A stretch of DNA of 64,000 nt, from IMG/VR virus record IMGVR_UViG_3300005613_000034; one strand, given 5' to 3'. Within the stretch, counting starts at the first letter, position 1, and every line of letters begins with the position of its first letter. Position numbers and translations under genes: made by a program. The notes under the pieces are model-generated. The model made no database searches, was not told where the DNA came from, and was given only the letters and a program-made list of their open reading frames with translations. Positions 9,475 through 60,208 of the stretch are shown here, piece by piece. The DNA comes from a virus. Lineage: Duplodnaviria; Heunggongvirae; Uroviricota; Caudoviricetes.

Positions 9475-9515
9475 TTTTCTTATTTATAAACCTTTCTGTT
9501 TTTGTTTAAACTTTT

Positions 9516-9806: not shown

Positions 9807-12800
9807 TTATATTTTCATTTTTAAAAGTTTTTCATTTTCTTTTCCTAATACCGTTCGTTCGAACATATCATTTTTTAAAGCTTTTGCTTGAGCTCTATTT
9901 AATTGTTCTTGAGTTGGAATTGCATCATACCCGAAAAAACTTCCTTTTTTACCAATTGTTTCTCTTACCAATCCAATATTTTCGGCACTTGTAATTAAAT
10001 CTTTTTCTCCGAACGCGAATTTTCTAAACAAACTTGATTTTAATTGAATTAACGGAACTTTTCTTCCAGATTTTTCTCCTTTTTTCTTTTCCGGGTCTTG
10101 TTTCCCCCATCCACTACCAGCACCAAAAATTGGGCTAGCATATAAAGGATATTTATTATATGGTGGAATATACGGTGTAGGATCATATGGATATGGATCA
10201 TACGGTGTAGGATCATATGGATATGGATCATACGGTGTAGGATCATATGGATATGGATCATACGGTGTAGGATCATAAGGAGGTGGTTCATATGGAGGTG
10301 GTTCATATGGAGGAGGTTCATAAGGTGGGGGGGTTTCATATTTACTTGGATAATTTGGTTCTACATAATTTGGATCATTATATAAATTTTTATAATCATC
10401 AATATTATTTACATATTTTGTTTCTTTTAAAATTTTATCATATTCAGTAGTATCTCTTTCGGGCATTAAAATATTCCATCCATCATCAATTTTTTTATAA
10501 TAATCTTCTTTTACATTTTTATTTATATAAGGTGATTTTACAGTATTAATTTCTTCATATAACTCCGCTTGAGTTGGAACAGTGTTATCATATATAATTT
10601 TTAAAGAATCTTTTTGTTTTGGTGTTTGAACTTCAACTTTTGCGGCTTTTATTCCATAAATATCTTCTTTTACATTTTTACCAAGTGAAATTTTTCCTTC
10701 ACTAGGAGTAAATGTGGTTGTTTCTAAAAATCCTTGTTTCTTAAAAAAGTCTGCTTGTTTTTGATTAGCGGAAACCAATGTTTCGTTTTTCCCACTAAGA
10801 GAAATAATTGCAGTATTAACTTTTGGAACTTCATATGGATTTAAAATAGTTGTTTTTTCAACTGAAAATACAGGGCGAACATTTCCAATTAAATCAAATG
10901 CTTCTAACTGATTTCTAGTTCCTGCAGCTAAATTATTTTTAATATATTTTCCTGTTTGTGTTGTTGGGTTTAAAACTTCTTTTGGAGCATATTCAGAAAA
11001 ATATGAAAGTGCTTCTTTGTTTGCACCCCCAATAGTTTTAGACGCTGTGTGGGTATTTATACGTCTTAAAAATTTATCAAATGTTTTCTCATCCATAATT
11101 TTTTTAGCATCGGCCATTATATCACTAGTTTCTAATCTTTTTCCAGATTGATCTAATCTTAAAAAATTATTTTGATTAGATGGTTTTGTTATATAAGGAT
11201 CTGTACTATGTTGAATTTCGTGTAATAATGTACTTGTTTTATTTTTAATACCTTGAAATGGTTTAACAGAAATTGTTCCATCACTAGGTCTATAATATCC
11301 TAAAGATTTTATATCAAAATTTTTCTCCCATTGTAATAAAGATTCATCGGCACCTGTTAATCTAATAGCATCTCTATATCTAGCTGCATCGGCTGCCGAC
11401 CCAGTCAATTCAACACTTGGTGACATTAAATCAGATAAAATTAATTTTTGTTGAGGAATAGTTAAACTTGTTAAACTAAAATCTTTTAATGAAGGAATTG
11501 GTCTTGGTGCATCTCCTAAAACATTAGAATAACCTTCATATGCAACATTTTTAAACCAGTCAATATCTTTAGGTCTCCCAGATTCATAACCACCCATTAA
11601 TTTTCTACGCGCCTGTAATGCGGGGTTTAAAACATTTATACCTTCATCTGTTTTAACCCAACTTGTTGTTCTAGAAAAATCTTGAATATCACTAACTTTA
11701 TTTAATTGTTCATAAAGACCAGTAGCTTTTATTCCATGAATCGATGCAAAATGTTCAGAACCAGCATTTGCTGTTTTTATACTGACTTCCCATCCACCTT
11801 GCCCGGGGTGAATAACAATATCTGTTCTTGGATTGTTAGTAAAATATGTTCCTAAATCAATTTCTCCTTTATGCACATCAACATTTAATCCTTTTGAAGT
11901 AAATTCTTTTGCTATTTTTCCAGCTTGAGAATTAGTTGATAACCCTTCACCAAATAATGTTTTTACTACAACATCAAAATCTTTAGATTTTAAATCTTTA
12001 TTTTTAAATATTTTTGCGGCTTTATCTTTTGCATAAGAAAATGTACTAGATGTACTTCCACCCAATCCAACATCAGAAGAATTTTTTTGTAAATAAGATT
12101 TCATAGCTTCCAATGCTTTTTTTACCCGAGTCCCATCTTTTCCTTTAACTTGTTTTAAATCACTCCATTGAGAATATTCAATAGCTTCATCAAATGTTCT
12201 TGTTTTTGTTGTTTGTGCTGCCTTTCGTAAATCTTTATCAAAAGCTAATTCAATATCTGATGTTGCTTCTATTAACGTTGGTCTTTTTCCAGGTGAATTA
12301 AGAATTCTAAATTCTTTTTTATTTGATTTATTTAAAACAAATTCAGATTCTGGAATAAATGGAGTACCAGGAGTATTTATAACACTTCCCTCTTGAATAA
12401 TTACTTTTGATTCTGGGTTTCTAGCTATTTGTTTTATAATATTTTTAGATGTTGCTTTAGTAACTGGACTAAAAATTTTCTCCCCAATATCAGTTCCTAC
12501 TGGAGCAGCTAACATCATACCAGCTAATTCACTTCTTGCTTTACTACGTTCTTTAACATAAGTATCATATCCTTTTTCTGATGCAATATTATACAAATCA
12601 ACATTTGATTTTAATAAAGATCCAGTAAAATAAGCAGGTAAAACATATTTTCCTACAGTTTCACCAGTTTTTTCAATAAAAGCGAGTTTTTTATTAGCAG
12701 CAAAATTTGTTGTTGTTGTTTTTAAAGGATCTAAGACCCCGGAAAACCCACTTTGTTTAAATTGTTTGGCTGCTTCTGCAGCATCTTTAACAGTATATGT

Positions 12801-15038
12801 TGTGGTTTGAGTTCTTAATCCACCACTAAGTTTTTCAACAGCTTTTACATCCGCTGCATTAACAACCGTTTCCACTCCTTTCATTGCTGTTCCCAAAATT
12901 ACTCCAGTTCTAAGATTATCAGCAATAGTTTGGGCGCTCTGATCTTCTACTAGCATATTATATAAAGTTCCTTTTTGTAAAATTTTAGCGGCCGTTCCAA
13001 CAGTACCAATTTTTGGAAGTGGAGTAAATAAAATTGCTGATTCTGTAACAATTTCACCAAATGCTTCATGTTCGCCTTCCTTCTTTTTAACACCAGATTT
13101 AGAAACAATAACATATTTTTTATCCCACTCTTCTTTAGATAATGTTGCTGAATCAGCAAACGCTTGAGCATATAATTTATTTCCTTTAGGAGTTAAAAAG
13201 TATCCTTTCCCATCAGTAGAGTTATAAATTTTATTAATAATTGTATTATCCCCACGTAAAAAATCTTCTCTAGCTTTTTCAGCTAATTCAGGATCATTAG
13301 TAGCTCTAGCACTTGGAAGCCCTCTTAATACTTCACCACCAACAAACCTAGGAATTGAAAATAAAGATAATGTATCTCTAGCAACAGTAGGTAAAGTTCT
13401 TACTTTATCTGGCATATTAGCAAGTTTAGTTTCCAACATTTTTATATTTTTTTCATGATTTTCTTTCATATAAGGTAAAATTGCATTATCTCTATCATAT
13501 TTTTCCTTTTCTATTTGACGTCTAACAATTTCTTTTGCCCCCTCAGAAGAAATTTCTCCTTTACCAAAATCAATTTTATAATCAGTATCGCTTGGGGTAA
13601 TACCAAAAGTCGTCTTTTCCCCAGATATTGTAGAAGCCGCAAACTCAAGTGGTAAAACACTAATATTATAAGGAATTACTGCAGTATCTCCCACAAATTT
13701 TCCAACATCTAACACATTATCAGCTTTTTTATTTTTATCTAATTGATTATAAAATTTTCTTTCAACATTTCCCCAAAGTTCTCCAACAGTTTCATTCTCT
13801 CTTCTCATATCTTTATAATAAACTAAGTCCTCTTTAGCTTCTTTTAATTGATTAGTATCTTCAGTTAATTTAGCTAAAATATTTCCAATCCCATATTGAT
13901 TTTTATATTCATCATATGTTAATGTTTTATTTGTAGAAGAATCAAAATAAGGGGTTTTTTCATATTTTGTTTGTAATAATTTTTCATATTGTCCTTTATC
14001 TTTTTCAGATAATTTATCATATACCTCTTTAAATGTATCCCCTTTAATTAAATTAGCTTCTTTTGTATATTTATTAAATACATCTTCTTCTCTTTTTTGT
14101 ATATTAAATTTTTGATCTATACTTTTTATTTTTTCAACGTTTTTATTAATTGTAAATAACAACAATTCTTTCTCTGCTTCACTTAATGTATTATTAGGAG
14201 ATTCATACTTTTCAATATCAGTATTTGTTTTATCAACTAATTCTCTATATCCACTATAATTAACATCTGGATTTAATACTATATCTTTTCTAAATCCTTT
14301 ATATTCTTTTCCGGCTTCTGTATCAGGAATTTTTGTTCCAAGGTTAATTTGTGGCGTAGATTCATCTATAATAGATTGATCTAAACTTCTTGATGCTATA
14401 ACATTTCTAAAATATTCATCTTTTTTAATATTAGAAACATCTTTACCAGCAACAACATCTTGTGCAATCTTTGTAGCTAAATTACCACTTTTCATAATAT
14501 CAGTAATAGATTCATTCTGTTCAACTGTATTAAGTATATTTTTTCTTTCGTCTTGTAATTTAGAAAATTTTTCTCTAACTTCCTGTGATTCAATTGGATA
14601 ATTTGGTTTAGATGTTTTATTAAGTTTTACCTCACTCTTTTGCACAATTTTTACATTTTCGTTTCCTGCAGTTTTAAGATATTTAGAAGGTGGGGGAGCA
14701 CTAAAATATTTAGAAGTTGGTTTAGATGTAATATAAGAGCCGCCTTTTTTAACTCTTGGGGGTTGAGTAGTTCCAGCTTTACTAATAACAAGTTTTTTTG
14801 GAGGAGTGCTTTTAGGTTTAATATATTTAGAAAGTGGAGGCTGCGCGATAGGCTTAAAATAACTTCTATTTTCAGTAACAGTTCTTAATTCAGTAGGTGC
14901 TGATTGGCGAGCCTCTTCATAAGAAACTTTTCTATACCCCGCGCCTGGATCAACCGTAGAAGACATTCCTTGCCCGGTTTTAACATTAATATATTGCCCT
15001 GCACCACGATTAGCAGAAGAATTTACTGTAATGGCCAT
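9807..15038 (-). CDS. giant (1743 aa) putative virion-associated protein with HExxH motif and C-terminal Pro/Tyr tandem repeats
   Basis: LLHEIQHS motif; EPPPY x4 + DPTPYDPYPY x3 repeats; Lys-rich N-terminus. Confidence 0.7.
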   Translation of the reverse strand: MAITVNSSANRGAGQYINVKTGQGMSSTVDPGAGYRKVSYEEARQSAPTELRTVTENRSYFKPIAQPPLSKYIKPKSTPPKKLVISKAGTTQPPRVKKGGSYITSKPTSKYFSAPPPSKYLKTAGNENVKIVQKSEVKLNKTSKPNYPIESQEVREKFSKLQDERKNILNTVEQNESITDIMKSGNLATKIAQDVVAGKDVSNIKKDEYFRNVIASRSLDQSIIDESTPQINLGTKIPDTEAGKEYKGFRKDIVLNPDVNYSGYRELVDKTNTDIEKYESPNNTLSEAEKELLLFTINKNVEKIKSIDQKFNIQKREEDVFNKYTKEANLIKGDTFKEVYDKLSEKDKGQYEKLLQTKYEKTPYFDSSTNKTLTYDEYKNQYGIGNILAKLTEDTNQLKEAKEDLVYYKDMRRENETVGELWGNVERKFYNQLDKNKKADNVLDVGKFVGDTAVIPYNISVLPLEFAASTISGEKTTFGITPSDTDYKIDFGKGEISSEGAKEIVRRQIEKEKYDRDNAILPYMKENHEKNIKMLETKLANMPDKVRTLPTVARDTLSLFSIPRFVGGEVLRGLPSARATNDPELAEKAREDFLRGDNTIINKIYNSTDGKGYFLTPKGNKLYAQAFADSATLSKEEWDKKYVIVSKSGVKKKEGEHEAFGEIVTESAILFTPLPKIGTVGTAAKILQKGTLYNMLVEDQSAQTIADNLRTGVILGTAMKGVETVVNAADVKAVEKLSGGLRTQTTTYTVKDAAEAAKQFKQSGFSGVLDPLKTTTTNFAANKKLAFIEKTGETVGKYVLPAYFTGSLLKSNVDLYNIASEKGYDTYVKERSKARSELAGMMLAAPVGTDIGEKIFSPVTKATSKNIIKQIARNPESKVIIQEGSVINTPGTPFIPESEFVLNKSNKKEFRILNSPGKRPTLIEATSDIELAFDKDLRKAAQTTKTRTFDEAIEYSQWSDLKQVKGKDGTRVKKALEAMKSYLQKNSSDVGLGGSTSSTFSYAKDKAAKIFKNKDLKSKDFDVVVKTLFGEGLSTNSQAGKIAKEFTSKGLNVDVHKGEIDLGTYFTNNPRTDIVIHPGQGGWEVSIKTANAGSEHFASIHGIKATGLYEQLNKVSDIQDFSRTTSWVKTDEGINVLNPALQARRKLMGGYESGRPKDIDWFKNVAYEGYSNVLGDAPRPIPSLKDFSLTSLTIPQQKLILSDLMSPSVELTGSAADAARYRDAIRLTGADESLLQWEKNFDIKSLGYYRPSDGTISVKPFQGIKNKTSTLLHEIQHSTDPYITKPSNQNNFLRLDQSGKRLETSDIMADAKKIMDEKTFDKFLRRINTHTASKTIGGANKEALSYFSEYAPKEVLNPTTQTGKYIKNNLAAGTRNQLEAFDLIGNVRPVFSVEKTTILNPYEVPKVNTAIISLSGKNETLVSANQKQADFFKKQGFLETTTFTPSEGKISLGKNVKEDIYGIKAAKVEVQTPKQKDSLKIIYDNTVPTQAELYEEINTVKSPYINKNVKEDYYKKIDDGWNILMPERDTTEYDKILKETKYVNNIDDYKNLYNDPNYVEPNYPSKYETPPPYEPPPYEPPPYEPPPYDPTPYDPYPYDPTPYDPYPYDPTPYDPYPYDPTPYIPPYNKYPLYASPIFGAGSGWGKQDPEKKKGEKSGRKVPLIQLKSSLFRKFAFGEKDLITSAENIGLVRETIGKKGSFFGYDAIPTQEQLNRAQAKALKNDMFERTVLGKENEKLLKMKI
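10171..10325. repeat. tandem repeats: 3 perfect 30-bp units (+partial) then 3x 15-bp units, encoding DP(T/Y)PY / EPPPY
   Basis: tacggtgtaggatcatatggatatggatca x3; aggtggttcatatgg x3. Confidence 0.9.
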
Positions 15039-16438: not shown

Positions 16439-16478
16439 ATTATAAATAAGAAGTTATTTATTTATAAACCTTTTGTTT

Positions 16479-18686: not shown

Positions 18687-19412
18687 TTAATGTACGAATA
18701 CATTTAAAAAGGTTTCGGTAGTCTTGCTTCCGATACCATCAACCTTAAAAGACCCGTCATTCAGTGCTTTACGAAGAGAAGAAAAATCCGGGTAAATTTT
18801 TTCAATTGATTTAGCTTTCTCTTCACTTATATTAGGTAAAGACATTAAAACATTTCGGTAAGTATTATCTTTATGTTTAGCATGTGTTATTGCCATACCT
18901 CTTATCTCTTTTCCATCTGTAAGCTTTTCGGCAACCATTAACAAAAAATCAATAAATTCATCGTCATTTTTAACAAAAATCATTTCTACATTAGTATATC
19001 GCGCGGCAACACTAGACATAATTCCAAGAAGCTGATTTCGAGAAAAAGTTTTTACATTTTGTACTATTCCCATAGCTTTTAGCTTCGCCCGTTCTTTGTA
19101 AATAGCATCGATGTCACCAACGACAATTAAAAAATTTTTAGAAAAACTATTATTCATCTTATAAAGCTCTGAAAATATTCTTCCATTATAAATTGATCCA
19201 ACTAAATCACTAAAAATCTTTCGCTCAACACAAAATTTATGTCCTGTTTCTTTATTTTCAACAATATAATCTCCAATTTTAAGTTGTTTCATTTCATATT
19301 TAACTCCAGCGGCATCAAATTTTGGAATAATATTTTTATCAATACTATTTTTATGTTCTTCTCTATGATCAATTGTTATATTAAAATTATCTTTATTTAC
19401 CATATTTATCAC
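18687..19412 (-). CDS. XPF/Mus81/Hef-family ERCC4 nuclease with C-terminal HhH
   Basis: IGDYIV...CVERK signature (GDxnERKxxD); C-terminal DGIGSKTTETF HhH. Confidence 0.75.
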   Translation of the reverse strand: MINMVNKDNFNITIDHREEHKNSIDKNIIPKFDAAGVKYEMKQLKIGDYIVENKETGHKFCVERKIFSDLVGSIYNGRIFSELYKMNNSFSKNFLIVVGDIDAIYKERAKLKAMGIVQNVKTFSRNQLLGIMSSVAARYTNVEMIFVKNDDEFIDFLLMVAEKLTDGKEIRGMAITHAKHKDNTYRNVLMSLPNISEEKAKSIEKIYPDFSSLRKALNDGSFKVDGIGSKTTETFLNVFVH

Positions 19413-20031
19413 CTTTCTTTAAATTATCTTCAGCCCATAAAGGTTGTAAATTTTTATAATTAAAACATTTTTTCTGTTCTTCTAGTTTACTTAAATCAAA
19501 ACTTACACAAGGTTTAATATGATCAATATGCCAACCAAATTTTCCATAATTATCCCAAGACATTCCGTCCTTAAATTGTTTTTCTAAATGTTGTTTACAT
19601 TCTTCAATAGAACAACCTAAAAGTTCTTTTGTACAATCAGATTTATAATTTCCTTTTAATGCATGAATTATTCTCATTCTTTGATTTGTAGCAATTCTAA
19701 AATTAATATTATTTTTACGTCTATTTTTTAAATATAAATTAATTTTTTTTCTATTATTAATAGAATATATTTTTTTATTGTTTGAAATTTTTTCTTTATT
19801 ATTTTCTCTATATTTTTTATCAGATATTCTTTTCTTTTCAATATTATTTTTTCTATATTTTTTCATTTTTTCTTTCATTATTTCTTTATTTAATTTATAA
19901 TAATTATTTGTTTGTGTTTTTATTTTTTCTTTATTTTTTTCATAATATAATTTATTATATTTATCTGTTTGAATTTTTATTTTTTCTTTATTTTTTAAAC
20001 GATAATTTTTCATATATTCTTCTTTAGTCAT
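19393..20031 (-). CDS. HNH endonuclease with Lys-rich repetitive N-terminus
   Basis: GWHIDHIKPC...N..LQPLW..N..K HNH core. Confidence 0.8.
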   Translation of the reverse strand: MTKEEYMKNYRLKNKEKIKIQTDKYNKLYYEKNKEKIKTQTNNYYKLNKEIMKEKMKKYRKNNIEKKRISDKKYRENNKEKISNNKKIYSINNRKKINLYLKNRRKNNINFRIATNQRMRIIHALKGNYKSDCTKELLGCSIEECKQHLEKQFKDGMSWDNYGKFGWHIDHIKPCVSFDLSKLEEQKKCFNYKNLQPLWAEDNLKKGDKYGK

Positions 20032-23890: not shown

Positions 23891-24624
23891 TCAAAAAATG
23901 CTGCTAATGTAGTTTGAGAATTCTTGATGTTTACCACTCTTTTTTAAATTATCTTTAGCCCATAAAGGTTGGAGATTAGTATAATTAAAACATTTCTTCT
24001 GTTCACTTTCTTTAGATAAATCAAACGAACAACAAGGTTTAATATGATCAATATGCCAACCAAATTTTCCATAATTATCCCAAGACATACCGGGTTTAAA
24101 CTGACTCTCCAAATGTTTCTTACATTCATCAACTGTACAACCAAGTAATTCTTTAATTGATACACTTTTTTCATTTGTTTTTAAAGAATTTTTAAATCGC
24201 TTTCTTAAATTATCTAATAATTTAAATTCCCAATCATTTTTTAATCTTTCTTTTTTATATTCAATACATTTTTTAATAATTTTTTCTTTATTTTTTAAAT
24301 AATATTCTCTTGATTTTTTTCTATATAATTCCTTATTTTTAATATATCTTATATGTTGTTTTTCTTTTATAATTTTTTTGTTTTTTTCTCTATATTCTTT
24401 TTTATATTTTTTAATTTTTTCTAATATTTTTTCCTTATTTTTATTAAAATATATTTTTTTCTTTTCATATAATTCATCTTTATGATATTCATAATATTTT
24501 TTCCATCTTTTTTACATTCTTCTTTATTTTTTTCTCTATATCTTTTCCATTTACAATATTTAGAACAATATAAAATACGTTTATTTTTTGAAATAAATGT
24601 TTTATTACATAATTTACATTTCAT
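23891..24624 (-). pseudogene. second HNH endonuclease copy, apparently disrupted
   Basis: 73-aa intact C-terminal ORF near-identical to C-terminus of 19393..20031; upstream Lys-rich part in a different frame (24421..24624). Confidence 0.5.
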
Positions 24625-29570: not shown

Positions 29571-29771
29571 TCAGTTAATATCTTCTATCCAATCTAAAAT
29601 AAACTTTTTATTAATCCCCCTCCGTTTATTTTCAAGGTCTATACCAATTATAAAATTAGGTGTTTCGCGCTCGAAGTCAATTGTATAAACACTGTTCTTT
29701 TCAAACCCTTTGTTTATCATAATTTTATATTTAACTCCTTCTTCAAAACATCCTTCAAATGAATTTTCCAT
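29571..29771 (-). CDS. hypothetical protein (66 aa)
   Basis: first ORF downstream of origin-like region. Confidence 0.4.
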   Translation of the reverse strand: MENSFEGCFEEGVKYKIMINKGFEKNSVYTIDFERETPNFIIGIDLENKRRGINKKFILDWIEDIN

Positions 29772-29904
29772 AAAAATTTCCTCCTCTGTATAAATTATGA
29801 GTGAAACAATTTATAAAGCTTACCACAAATATAAACTTTATTTTTCATATAATTTATTCAATTTTTAAGTGATTTTTACGAAGTCCCGTTTTTGCCAATT
29901 TTCT

Positions 29905-30145
29905 GGCACCCTGGATACCTGAAATACCTTTGAGTTGTAGTGTATATATATATATATTTATGTTTTACTTACTACTAAACCTTGGGTATTTGAGGTATTT
30001 TGGGTATTTTATTCAAAAAAAATTTTCAAATTTGAATACCTATCCCCACTTTTCTACCCTTAAAACGCATTTAAACTTTTTCAATTGGCTAAATGTTAAA
30101 TTTCAATTTTTATAAATCTTATAAATCGTATAAATCTTATAAAAT
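29905..30145. promoter_or_regulatory. candidate replication origin / control region: (TA)8 tract flanked by GGTATTT boxes in both orientations plus CTTATAAATC direct repeats
   Basis: tatatatatatatat at 29943-29958; gggtatttgaggtattttgggtatttt at 29984-30009; inverted aaatacc copies 29911-29928 and 30033-30040; tataaatcttataaatcgtataaatcttataaaa 30111-30144. Confidence 0.5.
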
Positions 30146-30234
30146 TGGTACAATCATCGAATATAAAAAATTTTCACCCCTTTAAATCGGCGATTAGAGG
30201 CATTATATGAGTACCATTTTTTTGAGAAAAAGGG

Positions 30235-33200
30235 TTATTTTTTTGGTAAAATATCGCCCGCAGTTAGACACTTTGGACAAAATTTATGATTACCAGAAAT
30301 ATATCCGTGTAGTGGGCACACACTGAAAGTTGGGGTGATTGAGACATATGGTATTGAATAATTAGTAAAAATTTTCTTAATTAGATTTTTTACTGATTCA
30401 CCATTAGCTTTATGTTCACCTAAAAATATATGAAAAACCGTATTATGAACGAAAACCATACAATCATTACCAGCTAAATAATTATGGTTGTTTTTTGTTG
30501 TTAAATCATAAAACATATTATCTTTAACATTATGTTTATTTATAGATTTAACACGCGTTACAGGTAAAAATCTGGTATTTCTATTAGATTTTTGTGTTTT
30601 TATATAATTTTTATCTTTTGTTAAATTTAAGTTGTTTTTTTCTTGTGTTAAATAATAACTTGGTATTTGAAATATATAAATTAAAACTTCATTTATTTTT
30701 TTAGGTTGTCTTTTTCGTAATGAAAATGGAATTCCTGCTATAGAAAAAATTTCTTTTAAATCATTTTTAAGATTTTCTGATACAGTATAATATTCTCCTG
30801 TTCCTTGTTTTTTATTAATATGCCCATCTGAGTCTAATAATCCACTAATAAAGTGAAAAACATTATTTTTATTAAAATTATTTTTTATATAATTTGAAAC
30901 ACGAACATTATATGTTTTAGAACCAGGTTTAAATCCACATAATTTAAAAAAATTAATTATATTTTCTTTTGATGTTGGCAAAATCTTTAAATTTTTAGTC
31001 CTTTTATCTATATGTGACTTTGATATATTGGAATTGAAATTATTATTAAGAACATTTATAATTTTATTTATTGTTTTATCATTAGTTGAAAAAAATCTAA
31101 TTTTTTCTTTTTTAATATTATTATTCCCTCTATTATCATAATATGTACTCATACTACCATCCCCAATATAAAATCCTAACAACCACATTAAATCATTATT
31201 AATTTTTGAAGATTTATTTTTATATAAATTTGTTGATGTTTTTAAAATATAATCATTTTTTAATAATTCATCTGCTCGTTTTTCTATTATTTTTTTTGTT
31301 TTTTTATCATATACAAAAAATGGGTGCCAATTAGATGTAACAATATCTAAACCAAATTCACCAATTATTTTAATTTTATCTTTTTTAGAAACATCTATTT
31401 TCATTGCATCTATAACATCATCCCATTCACTAACATTTTTTTCTTTATTATAACTTAAAACTTTTAAATTTTTTAATTTTTTAAAATTATAAACTAAATC
31501 TTCAATTTTCATTAATCCTTTATTTGTTAAAATATCATTTCCTTTTTCTATACATCCACCGTTATAAATAGTTTGAATATCGTTCTGATTATCTAAAATA
31601 TTGAATAAATTCTTTTTAGAATCAACTTTTACTTGTGTTGAATTTGTGTAATATGGCGCCGCTTTATATTTTTCATAATTTTCGTTATTAGCGACTATTA
31701 TATCTGCATATTTTTTCTTGTCTTGTGCAGCAAATCTTCGGGTTACTCCTTCTGCTGGTGTAGCTTCCAAATTATATTCTTGCCCATCTTCTGCTTTATA
31801 TTGTTCTAATCTATTTTTCATATGATTCATTACTTTAATTGTAAATGCTTTACCTTCTTTAGATAATATATCCTTCCCTAAAAAGTTTTCGCATGATTCA
31901 TTCATACCATTCAATCCTATCGTGTTGAAATGGTTTGTCCAATATTGCCCTGTGTTTTGTTTGATATGGCGCATATAAAATTTTGTAAATGGAAAAAGTC
32001 CTTGTTCTGTCCATTTTTCAACAAACTTTCGTTTTTGTCTTAAAATTGTTGCTGACGCGTCCATTAATTCATCTAATCTATTAAAATAATCTCTTTCTGA
32101 ATGAGCAAGGTATCCTATTCTTGGCATATTTATAGTTACTACTCCCACCGAACCAGTTAACGGGTTTGCTGCAAACAACCCTCCTCCCCTTTTATTTAAT
32201 GTTTTTTTCTCTAACCGTAATCTGCAGCACATACTTACAGTATCTTCTGGGCTCATATCTGAATTAATATAATTTCCAAAATAAGGTATTCCATATTTTG
32301 CTGTAGCATCCCAAATTATTTTATGATTAGGATTATTCCAGTCAAAATTTTTATCAATATTTATTGTAGGAATTGGAAATGTAAAAACCTTTCCATTTTT
32401 ATCCCCTTCTAGATAAACTTCAAATAAAATTCTATTGAATAAATCAATTTCGGGTTGGAAATCTTTATAATTAACATTTTGAATTTTTCCACCTATAATA
32501 ACAGGAAGATTTTCCATATGTTTCGGGGGAGTTAAATCAAGCGTTATATTTGAGAAAGTTGATTGCCCACCAGATCTTGTGGTTACATTCATATTAAATA
32601 CAAATTCCTGTAGTGCTTGTTTAACTTCTTTTTCTGTTAATCCATCAAATCTAATAAAAGGGGCTAAATATGTATCAAAATTTGCAAATGCTTGGGCCCC
32701 AGAAAATTCATTTTGTGTTGTAAATAGAAAATTGACTATCTGCCCTAATGCACTTCTAAAATGTTTTGGGGGTGCTGATTCAATTTTTGATTCTACTCCT
32801 CCAAATCCTGTCAACAATAAATCTCTTAAATCCCATCCTTGACAATATGTACTTAAAGATCCTAAATCATGAATATGTAAATCTCCTTCAAAATGATATT
32901 TTGCAACTTCGGGGGCGAACACTTTATTCAACCAATATGTAGAACTAACTTTTTGTGCTATATTATGATTTAATCCTGATAATGAATATCGTGAATTTGA
33001 ATTTTCTTTTACTCTCCAATCAGCTTGGTTTAAATAATTATCTATTACAGCAGTATCTTCTACTATATTTTTAAAATTTCTTAAACTTTCGTGTTGGTGT
33101 CTATATAAAATATAAGATTTTGCAACTTTATCATGCCCGCGTTTAATAAGTGTCCTTTCGATAATGTCTTGAATTTCTTCAACAGACATCTCTTTTTTCT

Positions 33201-33360
33201 TTTCTTTTTTAATATTTTTTAAAATTTCATGTAGTAACACATCAAATTTTTCTTTATCATTGCCGCCTACACTTTTAACAGCATTCCATACGGCCCTTTC
33301 TATCTTTTCTTCATGAAATTTTTCCCTAGCTCCGTTTCTTTTTATAATAAATTCTATCAT
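30235..33360 (-). CDS. nrdD: anaerobic ribonucleoside-triphosphate reductase (class III, NrdD-like) with N-terminal ATP-cone, interrupted by an intein
   Basis: ATP-cone IIKRNGAREKFHEEKIERAV; SMCCRLRL resembling the NrdD thiyl-Cys region; C-terminal Cys cluster plus GY; extein ~670 aa. Confidence 0.75.
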   Translation of the reverse strand: MIEFIIKRNGAREKFHEEKIERAVWNAVKSVGGNDKEKFDVLLHEILKNIKKEKKKEMSVEEIQDIIERTLIKRGHDKVAKSYILYRHQHESLRNFKNIVEDTAVIDNYLNQADWRVKENSNSRYSLSGLNHNIAQKVSSTYWLNKVFAPEVAKYHFEGDLHIHDLGSLSTYCQGWDLRDLLLTGFGGVESKIESAPPKHFRSALGQIVNFLFTTQNEFSGAQAFANFDTYLAPFIRFDGLTEKEVKQALQEFVFNMNVTTRSGGQSTFSNITLDLTPPKHMENLPVIIGGKIQNVNYKDFQPEIDLFNRILFEVYLEGDKNGKVFTFPIPTINIDKNFDWNNPNHKIIWDATAKYGIPYFGNYINSDMSPEDTVSMCCRLRLEKKTLNKRGGGLFAANPLTGSVGVVTINMPRIGYLAHSERDYFNRLDELMDASATILRQKRKFVEKWTEQGLFPFTKFYMRHIKQNTGQYWTNHFNTIGLNGMNESCENFLGKDILSKEGKAFTIKVMNHMKNRLEQYKAEDGQEYNLEATPAEGVTRRFAAQDKKKYADIIVANNENYEKYKAAPYYTNSTQVKVDSKKNLFNILDNQNDIQTIYNGGCIEKGNDILTNKGLMKIEDLVYNFKKLKNLKVLSYNKEKNVSEWDDVIDAMKIDVSKKDKIKIIGEFGLDIVTSNWHPFFVYDKKTKKIIEKRADELLKNDYILKTSTNLYKNKSSKINNDLMWLLGFYIGDGSMSTYYDNRGNNNIKKEKIRFFSTNDKTINKIINVLNNNFNSNISKSHIDKRTKNLKILPTSKENIINFFKLCGFKPGSKTYNVRVSNYIKNNFNKNNVFHFISGLLDSDGHINKKQGTGEYYTVSENLKNDLKEIFSIAGIPFSLRKRQPKKINEVLIYIFQIPSYYLTQEKNNLNLTKDKNYIKTQKSNRNTRFLPVTRVKSINKHNVKDNMFYDLTTKNNHNYLAGNDCMVFVHNTVFHIFLGEHKANGESVKNLIKKIFTNYSIPYVSITPTFSVCPLHGYISGNHKFCPKCLTAGDILPKK
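30442..31554 (-). mobile_element. intein (371 aa) with LAGLIDADG homing endonuclease
   Basis: N-splice GG|CIEKGNDILT; LLGFYIGDGS and ISGLLDSDGHI LAGLIDADG motifs; C-splice VFVHN|T. Confidence 0.8.
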
Positions 33361-36665: not shown

Positions 36666-36735
36666 ATATATATCATCTATGTAAAGGTTTATAAATATAA
36701 TGTAGCCAGTTTATTCTGGCCACAAATCATTTAGT

Positions 36736-37014: not shown

Positions 37015-37465
37015 CTCTTTACGTTACGGCGTTCGTTTCTTTTCTAAAAAAGAAACTATTAGTATATATATTATGCACCGTTTAATTTATAAACCTTTTC
37101 ATAATATTGATTTTCGAATATCTTTTAAAGGATATGCGTCTTTATCAATACTTTCTTGTGCATCACGTTCTTCATAAAATTCGTTTATTACTTCGTTTAA
37201 TTCATCGTCAGATAAATATCTTTCGCTTATTGATTGGATTAAAATTAGTGTCATATTTATACCTCTATATAAATAGAGTATAGAAACATTTAAAAACCTT
37301 TCTATTATTTATGTTCATTCCAAAAAGCTATAAGCTTTTTTATAGCACCTTCATAAGTACCGGCTTTCATTTCATAATAAACTTTAGTCAGTGCTCTATG
37401 AGTGTCTTCATGAATTCCAACACTTTTTAATTTTTCTTTTTGTTTTTTAACTTCTTCTTCCATAT

Positions 37466-54451: not shown

Positions 54452-54842
54452 TTAATCACCTATTTATATATATTTTCGGGAATAAAGCAACATAACGGAT
54501 TAAAGCGATTAATAAAGGCAGAAAAACCCCTTAAAAATAAAAAGAAGGTTAAACTGAACTTGGATTTTGAAACAAAGCCCAAAATGAGCTTTAAATCAAA
54601 AATAAACCTTAAAATTAGGTTTAAATCCAAAAACCAATATTTCACGCAAAAAAGCAGTTATGCTGAAATGCCCGAAAATGTTAATTTTATTAACAAATAT
54701 GATATACTAACGGAAAGAGAGTTTATATAGAATGTGTGAATTTTGCTGTAATATATGGACAGGAAAACAGGGTTTATATGTATCAAAATATACAGGAATA
54801 ACTAATTAACTGAACAAAATGAACATTAACTAAGCGTAGTGA

Positions 54843-54894
54843 ATGAGTGAATTGTTATGTAGAAGTGGCGAAAATGAGCTGTTATGTAGAAGTG
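54843..54894. repeat. two direct repeats AATGAG..TGTTATGTAGAAGTG (~23 bp) in strand-switch region
   Basis: 54843-54868 and 54871-54894. Confidence 0.8.
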
Positions 54895-54935
54895 AATATA
54901 GGTGAACTAGCGCAAACGGAGGGCTACATCCCCCT

Positions 54936-54990
54936 TAAATTATATAAATTATATAAATTATATAAATTTTATAAAGTTTATAAATTTTAT
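54936..54990. repeat. tandem TTATATAAA / TTTATAAA AT-rich repeats (iteron or DUE-like)
   Basis: aaattatataaattatataaattatataaattttataaagtttataaatttta; related copies 55075-55125. Confidence 0.8.
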
Positions 54991-55591
54991 ATGAGAGTGG
55001 TTTTCACCAAAAAATTCAATCCTCATAGAGCGCGAAATTAAAAAAAATTGAAAAAATGGCGAAGCACTATATCCATATAAATTTTATATGATATATAAAT
55101 TTTATAAATTTTATAAGAGATTTCTAGTACATCGATCACATCAAAAAGAAACAATCTTTTTCTTTTGTCTAAACTCTTTAAACAATTACAGTACTATATA
55201 AACAAAAAGCTTTGTGTGGCGGCATTCAAGACCAGCTGAAATTCCAAATTTTTGAGTTTTGGCTCGTAGTTAAAAATTAGGGTAAGGGTAGTAGTCGAAA
55301 AAGTGTTCAAAATAGCATGAAACAACACTTGTTTACCTTATTGCACTATTGTTAAATTTGGTTTCGGGGTGGCTTTAGACCCCCGTAGAATAAACGCAGA
55401 CCCCCAATACACCTATTTTACGGCACCCTGATATAGGTAGGGGCAAAAAACGATTTTTTGTGAGGGAGACTTTATCAAATTTTACAAAAATGTTTTGAGT
55501 TGATGCCCAGGAGACCCTTTTTAACAGTTGCCCAGGCCATTTCTGGACCAGAGTAAAAACATTTATATACTTTGATGCACTATAATATATA

Positions 55592-56644
55592 ATGACATCA
55601 AAAAAATCTGATATTGATAGAACAAATCTTTCTGACATACCTTCATATAGCAAAATGTTTGATAAAATAAAATCAATAGACATCAACGAATACAAAGGAT
55701 ATACCCGGAAAAGAATGATTTGGGTAAAGGCAGCCGCTACTATTCTACTATTAACGGGGTGTAGGGTTACTGAATTACTTTTACTTAGAAAAAAAGATAT
55801 TCGATTCTTTGGATTTAATAATAATGAATTGGTTGGGCAGTTTGATATTTCCCAGATTGCATCAATGCAATTTAATTTATATACCGAGAAGAACCGTAAA
55901 AACAAGTATAGAGTTGTTCCTGTTGTAAAAAACAGTTTTTTTATTGACATGATATCTATTGTATATGATTTTTATAAAACCTTTGATTATGATGAGACAT
56001 ATTTATTCCCACTCACAAGGCAGGGGGTATGGAATGGTATAAAGGCGGTTTTTGGAAATAATATGTTTCCACACTTCCTTAGACACATTTCAGTAACTAA
56101 TGATACTAAAGCTGGTATTTCTCCATCTATTATTAAATCTAAATATGGGTGGACGGATCTTAGACCACATTCAATTTATTCACACTTGAATTGGTTTGAT
56201 ATTCAAACCGCACAAACTTCTGCATGGGGGGAGGCCGCACCCGCTCCAAAAGCCATTATTATTGAACGCCCTAGTTGGATGAAAGGGTCTTATGCCCAAA
56301 TGACCAATTATAATAAAAAAGTTGAGCATGCATTACATAATAATCAAGATTTTGTTCCGCGAGATTTTGATACTATTGAAGAAGCACTTAAAAATAAAGT
56401 TGAAATGGGGGATTCAATAGATGGTAAAATTGTTGTTATTTTGTCTAGAGAGACCGATTTTGATAAAGCTAAAAAGAGGTTTGACGGGAATAAATATATA
56501 TTGATTTATGCTAAAAGTAAGGAAGCTATTAAAAAAATGGAAAGTGTTACTAATGCGTCCGCTCAAAAACGAAGCCCGAATCCAACCCCCCAACCTCCAA
56601 CAAAAACAGTTCCTAAAAATACTCCTCAATTAGCTATGGTGTAG
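55592..56644 (+). CDS. tyrosine recombinase / integrase
   Basis: box I-like LLLTGCRVTELLLLRKKDI (Arg); HFLRHISVT (H-x-x-R); HSIYSHL (Tyr); ~120-aa Pro-rich C-terminal extension. Confidence 0.75.
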   Translation: MTSKKSDIDRTNLSDIPSYSKMFDKIKSIDINEYKGYTRKRMIWVKAAATILLLTGCRVTELLLLRKKDIRFFGFNNNELVGQFDISQIASMQFNLYTEKNRKNKYRVVPVVKNSFFIDMISIVYDFYKTFDYDETYLFPLTRQGVWNGIKAVFGNNMFPHFLRHISVTNDTKAGISPSIIKSKYGWTDLRPHSIYSHLNWFDIQTAQTSAWGEAAPAPKAIIIERPSWMKGSYAQMTNYNKKVEHALHNNQDFVPRDFDTIEEALKNKVEMGDSIDGKIVVILSRETDFDKAKKRFDGNKYILIYAKSKEAIKKMESVTNASAQKRSPNPTPQPPTKTVPKNTPQLAMV

Positions 56645-56845
56645 ATATCTTTTTAAAGTCTTCTGTACATTAATATTATATGGTGACGCGTAAACCAATG
56701 CGAGAAATTGAATTAGATGCATTTGCATTGATTCGTGAATTTGACGATACTCTTGAATATATGGAGAAGAGAATTTTTTATATGAGGCGAAAAGTTGCTG
56801 AAATTAGAAAAGAATTAATAAAACAAAGACCTGATTTTGTAGGAG

Positions 56846-57172
56846 ATGATTGAATTGAGTAAAATTGTGTTGTTATCTAAAGTTAAATTTTCGTTAGGAA
56901 TTATCGGAATGATGTTTAGAAAGAAAAAATTGATTCCACACGTTTTTAAAAAACGGGGGTTTTTTACTGTAAATTCAATGCATGGGTGGTTTATGAGTTA
57001 TCCGATTGACATAATTTTTTTGAATGATAAAAATATTGTCGTAGACAAAGCTTGTTTTGGCCCTTTTGGTGGTTATACTTCTAAGGTTAAAGGAATTGTT
57101 TATGCTGTTGAGGCAATGGAAGGCGATTTTGATGAAATTGAATTGGGAGATACTGTTTTGTGGAATGGGTGA
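56846..57172 (+). CDS. DUF192-like small protein
   Basis: ...ACFGPFGGYTSKVKGIVYAVEAMEGDFDEIELGDTV pattern. Confidence 0.4.
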   Translation: MIELSKIVLLSKVKFSLGIIGMMFRKKKLIPHVFKKRGFFTVNSMHGWFMSYPIDIIFLNDKNIVVDKACFGPFGGYTSKVKGIVYAVEAMEGDFDEIELGDTVLWNG

Positions 57173-57178
57173 TTTTTT

Positions 57179-57544
57179 ATGAGTAAAATTTTATATGGTG
57201 GATTAATTATAATAGCAATAGTTGTAATTGTTATAGGTTGGGGGATTATTTCTGAACCGAAGGTTAATGTTGATAATTTAGCAGAATGTTTGACTGAAAA
57301 AGGTGTTATAATGGCAGGAACGGATACTTGTGCGGCATGTCAAGAACAAAAGCGCCAATTTGGGGATGCATTTGATAAAATCAATTACAAGAATTGTGAT
57401 TATGAAGGAGAGTGGTGTAAACAAAATAATATTACCGGGTTTCCAACATGGGTTTTTCCGGATAGAACCTATTATCGGGGGGTTCAAAATTTAGGGTTTT
57501 TACAACAAGTTTCTGGATGTGAATTATATGAAAAAGAAAAATAA
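57179..57544 (+). CDS. membrane-anchored thioredoxin-fold protein (CxxC)
   Basis: N-terminal TM; GTDTCAACQEQK. Confidence 0.55.
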   Translation: MSKILYGGLIIIAIVVIVIGWGIISEPKVNVDNLAECLTEKGVIMAGTDTCAACQEQKRQFGDAFDKINYKNCDYEGEWCKQNNITGFPTWVFPDRTYYRGVQNLGFLQQVSGCELYEKEK

Positions 57545-57801
57545 AGTAATTTTGTCACGTGAACAAGTTGCTTTGATGTCATTTGGTATTGGTGTTGGGG
57601 TGGGTATTTGTTTGACTTTACGTTGTCTGGAGTGATTGAATGTTTTTTCGGATCTCCGGCTTGTCAGGCTTCTACAGCGTGTGGTATTCCCGATTGTATG
57701 TTAGCTACGCTAAGTATTGTTATTTTGGTTATTGTTGTTGTGTTTGGTTGGCAGGCGTTTTCTAGTTAAGTTTTTAAACATGTCGCCACATATTTAATAT
57801 A

Positions 57802-58044
57802 TTGGTGGAGATGATAAAAATGAATAAGTTAATAATAATTGGAATAACTTTAATCCTAATAATTTCGTTATTTGGGTGTACTGAAAGTAAAAAAGAAGGA
57901 TTCAAGACCGAAGATTGTGAAAATGATTGTGAAAGTTTAGGGCAAAAATATTTTAAATATAATTATTCAATGGGTGGGTACGGCCCAAGTATTGTACAAT
58001 GTTGGTGTGTAAACGATGAAAATGTTGTACAACAGGTATGGTGA
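57802..58044 (+). CDS. small Cys-rich lipoprotein-like peptide (80 aa)
   Basis: signal plus SLFGC-TES lipobox-like site; 6 Cys in mature part. Confidence 0.5.
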   Translation: MVEMIKMNKLIIIGITLILIISLFGCTESKKEGFKTEDCENDCESLGQKYFKYNYSMGGYGPSIVQCWCVNDENVVQQVW

Positions 58045-58050
58045 TAAAAA

Positions 58051-58479
58051 ATGAGTAATAATGAAGATTTAGTTGAAAGAGTTGATTGGGAAAAAATTCA
58101 ACCAATGTCTAGATATGCCGGGGGGCATGATGATCAAATGGAAGGGTTATTAAAAAATTCTACTGTTTTAGCTCATTGGAATGAAGGGGATTATCAAGGA
58201 AGTGTTGCGACATGTGTCCAATTGAATGATACTAAAGAAATAGTGATTTTTTGTGATTATTATGGTTCTTGTAGTGGGTGTGATGCGTGGGAAGATGCTT
58301 CTGATGAAGAAGCTTTAAGAATGTGTAAAGGTCTTGCAGCTGGGGCAAAAATATTTAAGAATATTGAAGAATGTAAAGAATTTTTATCTCTAGAAAAATA
58401 TGAATCTAATGATTATGAATGGGACTGTTGTTCAAAAGAATTACTTGAAGAACTTGAAAATGGTGAAAAAGATGACTAA
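58051..58479 (+). CDS. hypothetical Cys-rich protein (142 aa)
   Basis: FCDYYGSCSGCDAW; stop overlaps next ATG. Confidence 0.45.
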   Translation: MSNNEDLVERVDWEKIQPMSRYAGGHDDQMEGLLKNSTVLAHWNEGDYQGSVATCVQLNDTKEIVIFCDYYGSCSGCDAWEDASDEEALRMCKGLAAGAKIFKNIEECKEFLSLEKYESNDYEWDCCSKELLEELENGEKDD

Positions 58480-59032
58480 AAAACTCAACATTGGATGTGG
58501 GAATCAATACGAAAAAGGTTGGGTTAACACCGAAATTGTTGAAGGGTGTAAAGCCGATTTTTATTTTGATGCTGGGAGAGATCCGTGGCCTTTTCCAGAT
58601 AATACTTTTGAACGCATGAAAGCTGAACATGTTTTTGAACATTTACCAGATTATGATGCAAGAATGCATTTTTTACGCGAAGCTCATAGAGTTTGTGAAC
58701 CAGGGGCAAAAATTTTCTTAGCAATGCCATATTCAAGCAGTGGTGGAACTTGGAATGACATGCAACATATTCGACCATTTGGGGCCGCAAGTTTTGATTA
58801 TGTTTCAGTCAATCCTTCTTCGAAGGTTTCTATTATGCATGACCAGGAAGTAGGTGATCTTGTGGGGGCATTCAAACAAAAGACTACGATAAAATTCGGG
58901 CGATTTTATACAAAATTCCTTTTCCTTGAATTTTTTGCAAATTGGTGGCACACTCGTCATATTTATGAGTTGTTATTTCAATATATTTTCCAAGCACAAG
59001 AATTACACGCTCATTTAGAGGTGGTAAAATAG
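58472..59032 (+). CDS. class I SAM-dependent methyltransferase
   Basis: LNIGCGNQ motif I; start taken at MTKKLNIGCG (ATGA overlap). Confidence 0.65.
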   Translation: MTKKLNIGCGNQYEKGWVNTEIVEGCKADFYFDAGRDPWPFPDNTFERMKAEHVFEHLPDYDARMHFLREAHRVCEPGAKIFLAMPYSSSGGTWNDMQHIRPFGAASFDYVSVNPSSKVSIMHDQEVGDLVGAFKQKTTIKFGRFYTKFLFLEFFANWWHTRHIYELLFQYIFQAQELHAHLEVVK

Positions 59033-59167
59033 AATTGTGCCCAGAATGCGGTAGTTGTAGATCGATGAAATTTTATGGAAAAGGAGCAAAAAAAGGATTA
59101 GGAATAAAAATGCTCGTTATACACTGCGAGTATTGTGGGGCAAAACAAATAAGTTGGGTGAAAACAG

Positions 59168-60208
59168 ATGACATATAAAAGAAAATTAAAAAAATTATTG
59201 AAAGTCGTTTCGACAGGAAATTTTTCATATTTATGGGCCCCCAAAAGAATTCAATTTATTCCTACACTAAAATGTAATCTTAATTGTAAAATGTGTCATC
59301 AGAAAGATATTAAACATGCTGGAGAACGCGAAATGTCTTTAGCGGAAATTAATAATAAATTACGAGAACTCAAAAATATGGGTATTCATCAAATTGCGTT
59401 TGTTGGTGGAGAAGTTTTTGTAAATAAAAGACGCGGGTTTGAGATCCTTGATTTGGCGGAACAACACAAATTTTTATTTAGTGTAGCTACAAATGGGTTT
59501 AGACTTGAAGATGAAGATATTGAAAAACTTGCAAAATATCGGGGGCTTGTAGAAGTTGATATTTCGGTTGATGGGCCACAAGAAGTGCACGATAAAATTC
59601 GCGGAGTTCCGGATGCTTATATGTGGGCTGAACATGCTATAATTAAATGTAAAGAGTTAGATATCCCGGTTGCAACAGTTACTGTTATTCAAAAAGATAA
59701 TATAAAATGGTTACCTTGGTTAGCAAGAAAACTTGCAATAAATGGAGTTGTACAAGCAACTTTTGTATATGAATATTCAGTATCCGAAAAAGAAATTGAA
59801 GATACAAAAAAGATTATTCACTCGTTAACTGGAAAAAGTTCTACGATTTTTGCTAGTCATAGTGTTGGTAAGAATACTTTTAAGTATTCGTTGAAAGATT
59901 TGGTGGATAAGTTTTCTCAGATGGAATTTTTTGCTAATTATCATGGGATGAAACTTAATTTACAGGCGCGGGATTTAGATGTGTTAAAATCTGTAAAAAA
60001 TAAGTCTATAACAAAAGATTTTGATTGTAGTTGTGAAAGTATTAGCGAATTGAATCAAGTTGATTGGACTGGGGCGTTTGATTTTTGTCCGTTTATTAGA
60101 ATTGATGGTGCGTCTAAAGAAGAAGTTTTAGAAGTTCAGAAAAAGATTAAAACGCTTCCAATTTGCGATCGTTGTTGTGGTTTGACTATAGGGGAGTTGA
60201 AAAAATGA
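59168..60208 (+). CDS. radical SAM protein with C-terminal SPASM/twitch-like Cys cluster
   Basis: CNLNCKMC CxxxCxxC; C-terminal CSCES..CPF..CDRCCG. Confidence 0.8.
   Translation: MTYKRKLKKLLKVVSTGNFSYLWAPKRIQFIPTLKCNLNCKMCHQKDIKHAGEREMSLAEINNKLRELKNMGIHQIAFVGGEVFVNKRRGFEILDLAEQHKFLFSVATNGFRLEDEDIEKLAKYRGLVEVDISVDGPQEVHDKIRGVPDAYMWAEHAIIKCKELDIPVATVTVIQKDNIKWLPWLARKLAINGVVQATFVYEYSVSEKEIEDTKKIIHSLTGKSSTIFASHSVGKNTFKYSLKDLVDKFSQMEFFANYHGMKLNLQARDLDVLKSVKNKSITKDFDCSCESISELNQVDWTGAFDFCPFIRIDGASKEEVLEVQKKIKTLPICDRCCGLTIGELKK

Follow-up and report, generated by a model that had tools for sequence, protein, structure and literature searches.

Glycyl-radical enzymes are defined by a radical glycine on their own C-terminus, which raises the question of what an anaerobic (class III) ribonucleotide reductase (RNR; NrdD) can do when its gene ends before that glycine is reached. 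This question is posed by a 64,000-nucleotide (nt) stretch of the viral record IMGVR_UViG_3300005613_000034, referred to here as the window, which is almost entirely one mobile element, likely a virus. Its minus strand encodes, at 30235..33360, an open reading frame (ORF) of 1041 amino acids (aa) with an ATG start and a TAA stop, an nrdD precursor interrupted by an intein. The encoded core stops right after its zinc (Zn) ribbon, without a glycyl-radical loop. The interest of the locus lies in this orphan core and in the apparently undescribed two-piece NrdD to which it may belong, not in the intein. The relevant features, all on the minus strand, are:

30235..33360, minus strand: nrdD precursor, comprising ATP-cone, NrdD core and intein, without a glycyl-radical domain (Pfam, alignments)
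33088..33351, minus strand: ATP-cone (aa 4-91), allosteric activity site (Pfam PF03477)
31555..33360, minus strand: N-extein (aa 1-602), comprising the ATP-cone and most of the alpha/beta-barrel core
32830..32853, minus strand: STYCQGWD with its conserved cysteine (family-invariant column C174 of alignment A1)
32212..32235, minus strand: SMCCRLRL finger loop with the MCCR motif (alignment; motif classes of PMC9669993)
30442..31554, minus strand: class 1 intein (aa 603-973, 371 aa)
31153..31191, minus strand: LAGLIDADG motif 1, LMWLLGFYIGDGS (aa 724-736)
30820..30858, minus strand: LAGLIDADG motif 2, FHFISGLLDSDGH (aa 835-847)
30238..30441, minus strand: C-extein (aa 974-1041), comprising TVFHIFLGE, the Zn ribbon and the clade-specific tail LTAGDILPKK
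30268..30318, minus strand: Zn ribbon CPLHGY...CPKC
29772..30234, minus strand: non-coding gap of 463 nt 3' of nrdD, the place of the mini-ORF and nrdG in split-type relatives

The ORF encodes a real catalytic subunit of a class III RNR and not a class II enzyme, as judged from matches in Pfam, NCBIfam and PDB sequences, Foldseek searches with a structural model, the retention of invariant columns and the MCCR loop. Pfam recognizes an ATP-cone (PF03477) at aa 4-91 (E 1.4e-22), NRDD (PF13597) at aa 119-605 and in a second stretch (E 1.5e-164), Intein_splicing at aa 611-973 (E 2.9e-15) and LAGLIDADG_3 (PF14528; E 7.4e-13). These E-values, together with the presence of a 1041-codon ORF in DNA of 28% G+C, indicate that the features do not arise by chance. 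Removal of the 371-aa intein leaves an extein of 670 aa, which aligns with the intein-free clade member P0002 (670 aa) at 100% coverage and 71% identity; P0002 is in turn matched by NCBIfam NF006126 with an E-value of 7e-285 over profile positions 3-653 of 684. A PDB sequence search retrieved the NrdD of Prevotella copri (2e-31) and the intein PI-PfuI (2.2e-20). An AlphaFold2 model of the precursor, calculated from an alignment of 36 sequences (mean predicted local distance difference test score, pLDDT, 78), matched the class III RNRs of P. copri, Streptococcus thermophilus, Thermotoga maritima and phage T4 in Foldseek, with target template-modelling (TM) scores of 0.5-0.69 (matches including 8P2C, 9D3X, 4COI and 1H7A). 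Through the insert, the same model matched PI-PfuI (target TM 0.64), Thermococcus and Pyrococcus VMA inteins and PI-SceI.

At 71% aa identity between the window protein and its counterpart at locus L003, synonymous sites are expected to be saturated, and constraint was judged from invariant columns. Of 169 invariant columns in a family alignment of 23 sequences, the extein keeps 165, including the STYCQGWD cysteine, the M-C-C-R finger loop, NLEATPAEG, GG-V-H--GE and the CxxH...CxxC Zn ribbon, and the core is therefore probably still a working enzyme. The finger-loop invariants M378, C379 and C380 of alignment A1 are present in SMCCRLRL (aa 376-383); the MCCR double-cysteine loop is one of two dominant motifs in class III enzymes (PMC9669993), and in the window protein it is predicted to carry the thiyl-radical cysteine. 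The STYCQGWD cysteine (A1 column C174) appears to occupy the position of the conserved active-site cysteine, its placement on beta-A being our own assignment. The Zn-ribbon invariants C644, H647, C657 and C660 of A1 are kept in CPLHGY...CPKC (aa 1015-1031). An earlier note on this DNA had described the 1041-aa ORF as an ATP-cone-containing RNR of class III, with SMCCRLRL resembling the thiyl-radical region, and in these respects it was right. It had also pointed to a C-terminal cysteine cluster with GY; the cluster is present, but it is the CPLHGY of the Zn ribbon and not a glycyl-radical motif.

The radical loop of related proteins lies beyond the end of the window core. In complete homologues, the second CxxC is followed by 4-12 residues and then by (C)EVYSRVVGYLRPVxQWNxGKxxEF, which is the radical loop. 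The window ORF, with the C-terminus CPLHGYISGNHKFCPKCLTAGDILPKK, stops 10 residues after its second CxxC (CPKC), just before the point at which relatives carry EVYSRVVGY. In P. copri NrdD, the glycyl-radical domain consists of a Zn site followed by a buried glycine loop, with Gly711 as the radical glycine (PMC11226230). The alignment of the window protein to this enzyme reaches only about residue 702 (the end of the ORF being equivalent to about residues 702-708), and Gly711 lies beyond it. Positions 654-684 of NF006126 are likewise missing throughout the clade. Neither the glycyl-radical motif implied by the earlier note nor an NrdG activase, which the note proposed to look for on the replicon, was found, the activase being sought over 70 kb.

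This search drew on several approaches. A glycyl-radical-loop hidden Markov model (HMM) gave nothing above noise in a six-frame translation of the window (best 5 bits, E>2), and Pfam detected no Gly_radical family and no activase family in 80 further window ORFs. In the window, phmmer with an NrdG query matched only the CxxxCxxC of an unrelated 346-aa radical S-adenosylmethionine (SAM) protein. L170, a contig of the same sample whose overlap with the window begins at 53344, runs 6.2 kb past the end of the window; neither radical loop nor NrdG was found there, giving a total of 70 kb searched.

Candidates for a concealed radical site or activase were also considered and rejected. The gap at 29772-30234 contains neither a radical-loop ORF in any frame nor any other convincing ORF, and it has no terminator and no match in Rfam. 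A group I intron or a further exon after the stop codon, the arrangement of T4 nrdD, was dismissed on the same gap without a loop and on Rfam, which returned nothing at gathering threshold or at E<=10. Read-through of the TAA would lead into in-frame sequence without a radical loop, with the next stop after 26 codons. The string VFQVSRVPENWQKRDF, about 300 nt downstream in another frame, has no score against the loop HMM and no start codon. The conserved 66-aa ORF at 29571..29771 is not similar to the loop and accompanies the gene for a primase-like protein. As a candidate activase, the 346-aa radical-SAM protein (59168..60208) was set aside, being SPASM/PTO1314/NirJ-like and similar to NrdG only at CxxxCxxC. 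The gap itself shares a 17-mer, ATTCGATGATTGTACCA, and a triple ATACC-type repeat of 9-10 nt with the corresponding gap at L003 (3439-3814), in a different order.

The end point of the window core is shared with most of its relatives. Among the 120 best homologues, 85 end after the Zn-ribbon CxxC, as the window core does, and 35 are fused, continuing with EVYSRVVGY. In the 178-kb contig L001, which carries P0010 (59% identical), nrdD is followed by 57 nt and a Shine-Dalgarno sequence, an ORF of 46 aa (MVKTKCEVYSRVVGYIRPVSNWNDSKQAEFSDRKKFDSALESCKTC; starting MVKTKCEVYSRVVGYIRPV) and then nrdG; the neighbouring genes (ThyX, SHMT, RPA, PcrB) suggest an archaeal source. A scan with the loop HMM covered 162 related loci, comprising 81 from IMG/VR, 80 from GTDB species representatives and the single contig L002. 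The loop is fused in 132 of these and encoded by a separate short ORF in 30 (22 cellular loci, six viral contigs, L001 and L002). About a quarter of the related cellular nrdD loci are split, with a stand-alone gene for a peptide of 42-100 aa and with nrdG nearby. The peptide has the consensus CEVYSRVVGYxRPVxxWNxGKxxEFxxR and covers positions 648-683 of NF006126, and in all 30 split loci it is encoded within about 3.6 kb of nrdD. Cellular split cases include Woese- and Pacearchaeota, Synergistales, Pyramidobacter, Falkowbacteria, Elusimicrobium, Acetothermia, Trichloromonas and gammaproteobacterial metagenome-assembled genomes. Loci with stand-alone peptide genes include L001, L085, L089, L097-L101, L108, L109, L114, L116, L127, L129 and L131, as well as L143-L146, L152, L155, L160 and L161. 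In some loci, the peptide ORF follows nrdG or lies upstream of nrdD, which excludes read-through and frameshifting as explanations.

These peptides are numerous. When 1.84 billion representative proteins were searched by phmmer with the 46-aa peptide as query, there were 2,693 hits, the best 150 of which are all 46-138 aa long; the peptides form at least 150 distinct clusters at 50% identity and are highly conserved across phyla. NCBI and JGI call them as genes, named only 'anaerobic ribonucleoside-triphosphate reductase' (e.g. OQA31791.1, MDY3869528.1). No description of a two-piece NrdD was found in the searchable literature. Judged from these sequences, the two-piece NrdD appears to be a widespread architecture rather than the result of damage, and apparently an undescribed one.

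The window protein falls within a distinct group of such cores. In a neighbour-joining tree, it forms a long separate branch with eight others (P0002-P0009), and the nearest large cellular sister clade is entirely split-type. All nine members have the same C-terminal end point and share the conserved tail C-L-x-x-x-D-[IV]-[ILV]-P, and the others share 62-71% identity with the window extein. This clade, nine proteins from six loci, is the only one that has neither peptide nor nrdG, and neither was found in the relatives L003 and L165-L168. Among 161 other loci, a single one is without a radical loop, and there the contig ends within the locus. Synteny at L003 is as in the window, with nrdD followed by a gap of about 380 nt, a 62-aa ORF and a 946-aa ORF. 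In L165-L168 (subclade 2), the truncated nrdD lies in a tight operon between genes for MazG and an S-adenosylhomocysteine (AdoHcy) hydrolase, with spacers of 4-10 nt.

To our knowledge, all characterized NrdDs carry the glycyl-radical loop on the same chain. The radical glycine is Gly580 in the NrdD of phage T4 and Gly681 in that of Escherichia coli. The enzymes of phage T4, E. coli, T. maritima, P. copri and S. thermophilus (PDB 1H7A, 4COI, 8P23, 9D3X) share with the window protein an ATP-cone, a ten-stranded barrel, a finger loop and a Zn ribbon, and that of T. maritima also has a finger loop of the MCCR type. However, their radical loop is part of the chain, whereas the window protein ends before it and is accompanied by no nrdG in 70 kb. 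The split NrdDs of DPANN archaea, Patescibacteria, Synergistales and others have the same truncation point as the window core, but in these cellular genomes the core has the peptide gene and nrdG as neighbours, while the window element and its clade carry neither.

Other systems offer partial parallels. Spare-part glycyl-radical proteins are known only for formate lyases, according to a review of June 2026 (PMC13450708). GrcA (YfiD) of pyruvate formate-lyase (PFL) resembles the NrdD peptide in being a small separate protein that provides a glycyl-radical loop in trans to a large barrel enzyme. GrcA, however, rescues full-length PFL that has been cleaved by oxygen, whereas the NrdD core never has a loop of its own, which would make the peptide an obligatory subunit; the two have no sequence relationship beyond an RVxGY-type loop. 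Split class II enzymes (NrdJa/NrdJb) occur in Pseudomonas aeruginosa and Thermus phage phiYS40, and some phages encode RNR sets without a partner, presumably using that of the host (PMC3653736). These enzymes and phage nrdD genes without nrdG are similar in that catalytic subunits are split into polypeptides or a partner presumably comes from the host. In NrdJa/NrdJb, however, the core itself is divided, and none of these systems separates the radical loop alone or leaves the radical site wholly to the host.

The reading favoured here, at a probability of about 0.5, is that the window gene encodes the spliced, active core of a two-piece class III RNR that uses the peptide and activase of its host. 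The intein would excise from the 1041-aa precursor through an N-S acyl shift at Cys1, transesterification to Thr+1 and asparagine cyclization, and splicing would rejoin YNGG/TVFH (the slash marking the junction) to give a 670-aa core with ATP-cone, alpha/beta barrel with MCCR loop, and Zn ribbon. A free glycyl-radical peptide would be activated by the radical-SAM activase NrdG, after which its glycine loop would dock in the barrel beside the finger-loop cysteine and nucleotide reduction would start. The host cell, probably an archaeon of the DPANN type or some other organism in which nrdD is split, would provide both peptide and activase. The element would thereby gain an allosterically regulated catalytic capacity for deoxyribonucleoside triphosphate (dNTP) synthesis without carrying the radical-generating parts. 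The fuller proposal, that the element encodes the core only and hijacks the peptide and activase of the host, with the radical as a diffusible and exchangeable cofactor, atop a widespread two-piece class III RNR, we regard as falling somewhat short of even odds. An indirect precedent for supply by the host is that viral nrdD loci mostly have no nrdG nearby: it lies within 10 kb of nrdD in 26 of 81 viral loci compared to 75 of 80 cellular loci. Capture of the large ORF alone from a split host operon would also be an easy evolutionary step.

Several points weigh against this reading. That the host provides peptide and activase is something we purely infer, and activity in trans of a stand-alone NrdD radical peptide was not found shown for any organism in the searchable literature. 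The finger loop and Zn ribbon are of low confidence in the AlphaFold model. On the six other viral contigs where nrdD is split, a peptide gene is retained within about 3.6 kb, and borrowing is therefore not the usual viral habit. Furthermore, the absence of peptide and NrdG extends over 70 kb of an element of at least about 87 kb, a size implied by two ENA contigs (31,048 and 33,604 nt) that tile the window, the left end of which is open. The element may thus encode both components itself, more than 30 kb from nrdD and outside the 70 kb examined, and the peptide gene is indeed non-adjacent to nrdD in L009, L059, L036 and L079. This is unlikely, however, given the proximity of peptide and core in every split locus and the absence of the peptide from six loci in two subclades of the lineage, which include a complete 11.7-kb contig and the tight MazG-nrdD-AdoHcy-hydrolase operons.

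Slightly less probable again is that the truncated NrdD has ceased to be a glycyl-radical enzyme and serves in nucleotide binding or sequestration, in regulation, as a decoy for a host factor, or with another radical donor. Such a role would agree with the lack of a radical domain or activase within reach, the clade's own conserved C-terminal tail, the conservation in the lineage of the uncharacterized 346-aa radical-SAM protein, and the AdoHcy-hydrolase-like gene that abuts nrdD in subclade 2. However, retention of both finger-loop cysteines, the STYCQGWD cysteine, NLEATPAEG and the Zn ribbon among the invariant residues is the pattern expected from catalysis and loop docking, and the radical-SAM protein is SPASM/PTO1314-like rather than activase-like, in a methyltransferase/epimerase/glycosyltransferase module 26 kb away. 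Truncation through assembly error, frameshift or recent pseudogenization is very improbable: the chance-looking string VFQVSRVPENWQKRDF downstream might hint at a lost loop, but it lacks both HMM score and start codon, nine independent clade sequences from different samples have the same end and a conserved tail, and an independent ENA contig encodes an identical 1041-aa protein. Least credible, and refuted by the alignments, is the earlier reading of a self-contained NrdD with the C-terminal GY as its glycyl-radical site; although this dipeptide adjoins the C-terminal cysteines, it belongs to CP(x)HGY, an invariant Zn-ribbon motif that every homologue has ahead of the true RVxGY, and the alignment to P. 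copri NrdD ends before Gly711 while the loop HMM finds no match in the ORF.

If the host-dependent two-piece enzyme is real, a separate radical-loop subunit would change the picture of activation, oxygen repair and regulation in anaerobic dNTP synthesis, in that, after damage, a new 46-residue peptide could take the place of the old one while the 670-residue enzyme is kept. The two-piece NrdD would be the RNR counterpart of GrcA, but with an obligatory peptide. The element would be the first parasite dependent on its host for a protein-radical cofactor, and this dependence would help to predict the host, in which nrdD would have to be split.

The intein is the lesser part of the locus: it adds one more allele at a recurrent site, in a clade with at least three independent sites, one of them at the radical cysteine. 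Its splice junctions are YNGG/CIEKGN and VFVHN/TVFH, and it contains Cys1 (C603), block B SNWHPFF, block F/G FYDL..NHNYL..VFVHN and threonine as the +1 nucleophile. The two LAGLIDADG motifs are of the GDG and SDG types, with an acidic residue in each, and the W, H, P, F and F of block B are conserved in at least 95% of 16 homologous inteins. Thr+1 is the native, almost invariant threonine of the YTGG-T-V-x-H motif, and removal of the intein restores YNGG/TVFH, matching the invariant G601, G602, V604 and H606. G+C content is 19.4% in the intein versus 30.3% in the extein. The earlier note's description of a 371-aa LAGLIDADG intein that splits cleanly from its extein at GG/C and VHN/T is borne out by the end-to-end alignment with P0002, and its view of a selfish element nested in a metabolic gene of a mobile element fits this canonical intein in nrdD.

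A database search with the intein by itself returned 30 homologues with 38-59% identity, all within NrdD proteins; the same YTGG/C...HN/TV site is used by all 27 whose sequence includes a splice junction, and three of the 30, with lengths of 146-166 aa, are mini-inteins from which the endonuclease has been lost. The intein-bearing homologues, all from uncultured metagenomes, comprise fused and truncated NrdDs, with Nanoarchaeota and Patescibacteria among the source names. The nearest relatives of the window protein, P0002 and P0003 (70-71% identity), are intein-free, and a search of 50,697 phage records gave no homologous intein. An nrdD intein has already been reported in Clostridium phage c-st (PMC3653736). 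PI-PfuI of the Pyrococcus RNR (PDB 1DQ3) is alike in combining a Hint splicing domain with a two-motif LAGLIDADG endonuclease at an invariant RNR motif, but its insertion site is elsewhere, the window intein lying at YxGG/T of NrdD. On sequence grounds, the insert is predicted to be a homing intein of the standard kind, unremarkable except as a new allele at a site that is used recurrently.

Unrelated inteins occupy two further sites in the same NrdD clade (P0004, P0032, P0041, P0089 and P0117; P0008, P0020, P0062 and P0104). Those at TRVGFQ/C are 320-321 aa long, and those at SM/C...HN/CCR, directly at the thiyl-radical finger loop, are 326-389 aa long. Among P0130-P0141, from metagenome contigs, about 10 ORFs of about 500 aa start with MKKYKV..IIQAG..APYYTNS, only about 55 residues ahead of the position of the intein. 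Here nrdD seems to have been split in a second way, with one ORF for the N-terminal core and another for the C-terminal part that contains the intein.

The surrounding element encodes a family-B DNA polymerase (PolB), a 942-aa primase-like protein and a D5-type helicase, as well as an ATP-dependent ligase, a PD-(D/E)XK nuclease, an Mre11-like phosphoesterase, a DNA methylase, a phosphoadenosine phosphosulfate (PAPS) reductase and sugar-modifying enzymes. For most ORFs, Pfam and PHROG gave no match, and scans of the window recognized neither a capsid nor a terminase; searches of IMG/VR for relatives of the element with the 942-aa primase-like protein and PolB gave nothing. An integrase gene (55592..56644) lies at a flip of gene orientation and GC skew and begins a right-hand module (55592-61624) of integrase, methyltransferase, the 346-aa radical-SAM protein (59168-60208, plus strand) and a GT9 glycosyltransferase. 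This module is conserved in L171 and L172, and homologues of the radical-SAM protein occur only on small contigs. The possibility that the right-hand 9 kb is host flank was rejected: the integrase-led module, followed by many small unknown ORFs, recurs on small contigs of relatives and is therefore part of the element.

Just upstream of the integrase, at the same flip of orientation and GC skew, the non-coding gap at about 54650-55590 contains iterated 9-nt ATATAAATT/TTATATAAA repeats in two clusters (54930-55120), which may be an origin or attachment (att) region. The 14-mer AAAGGTTTATAAAT, found at 9482-9495, 16460-16473, 37085-37098 (minus strand) and 36683-36696 (plus strand), resembles the archaeal transcription factor B recognition element (BRE) and TATA box. 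The degenerate pattern AAANNTTTATAWAT has six matches, mostly upstream of ORFs, compared to 1.2 expected, and none of 100 shuffles reaches six. Taken together, the enrichment of this BRE/TATA-like motif and the affinity of the nearest cellular NrdDs to archaea are a hint that the host is archaeal.

The intein had also been counted by the earlier note as a third homing-endonuclease type in the same genome, a claim that was not confirmed: Pfam and PHROG searches of the other ORFs gave only two endonuclease-like genes. One of these, at 18687-19412 (minus strand), matches ERCC4-type nucleases and, more weakly, a PHROG family of HNH endonucleases, and the other is a small ORF with a Vsr/DUF559-like match. 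A direct repeat of 285 nt (77% identity) is present at 19402-19686 and 23927-24211; its copies, 4.5 kb apart, flank sugar-modification genes and a Band-7 gene. The 1743-aa ORF at 9807-15038 (minus strand), which has no match in Pfam or PHROG, contains nine tandem copies of a 15-nt (five-codon) repeat at 10134-10342.

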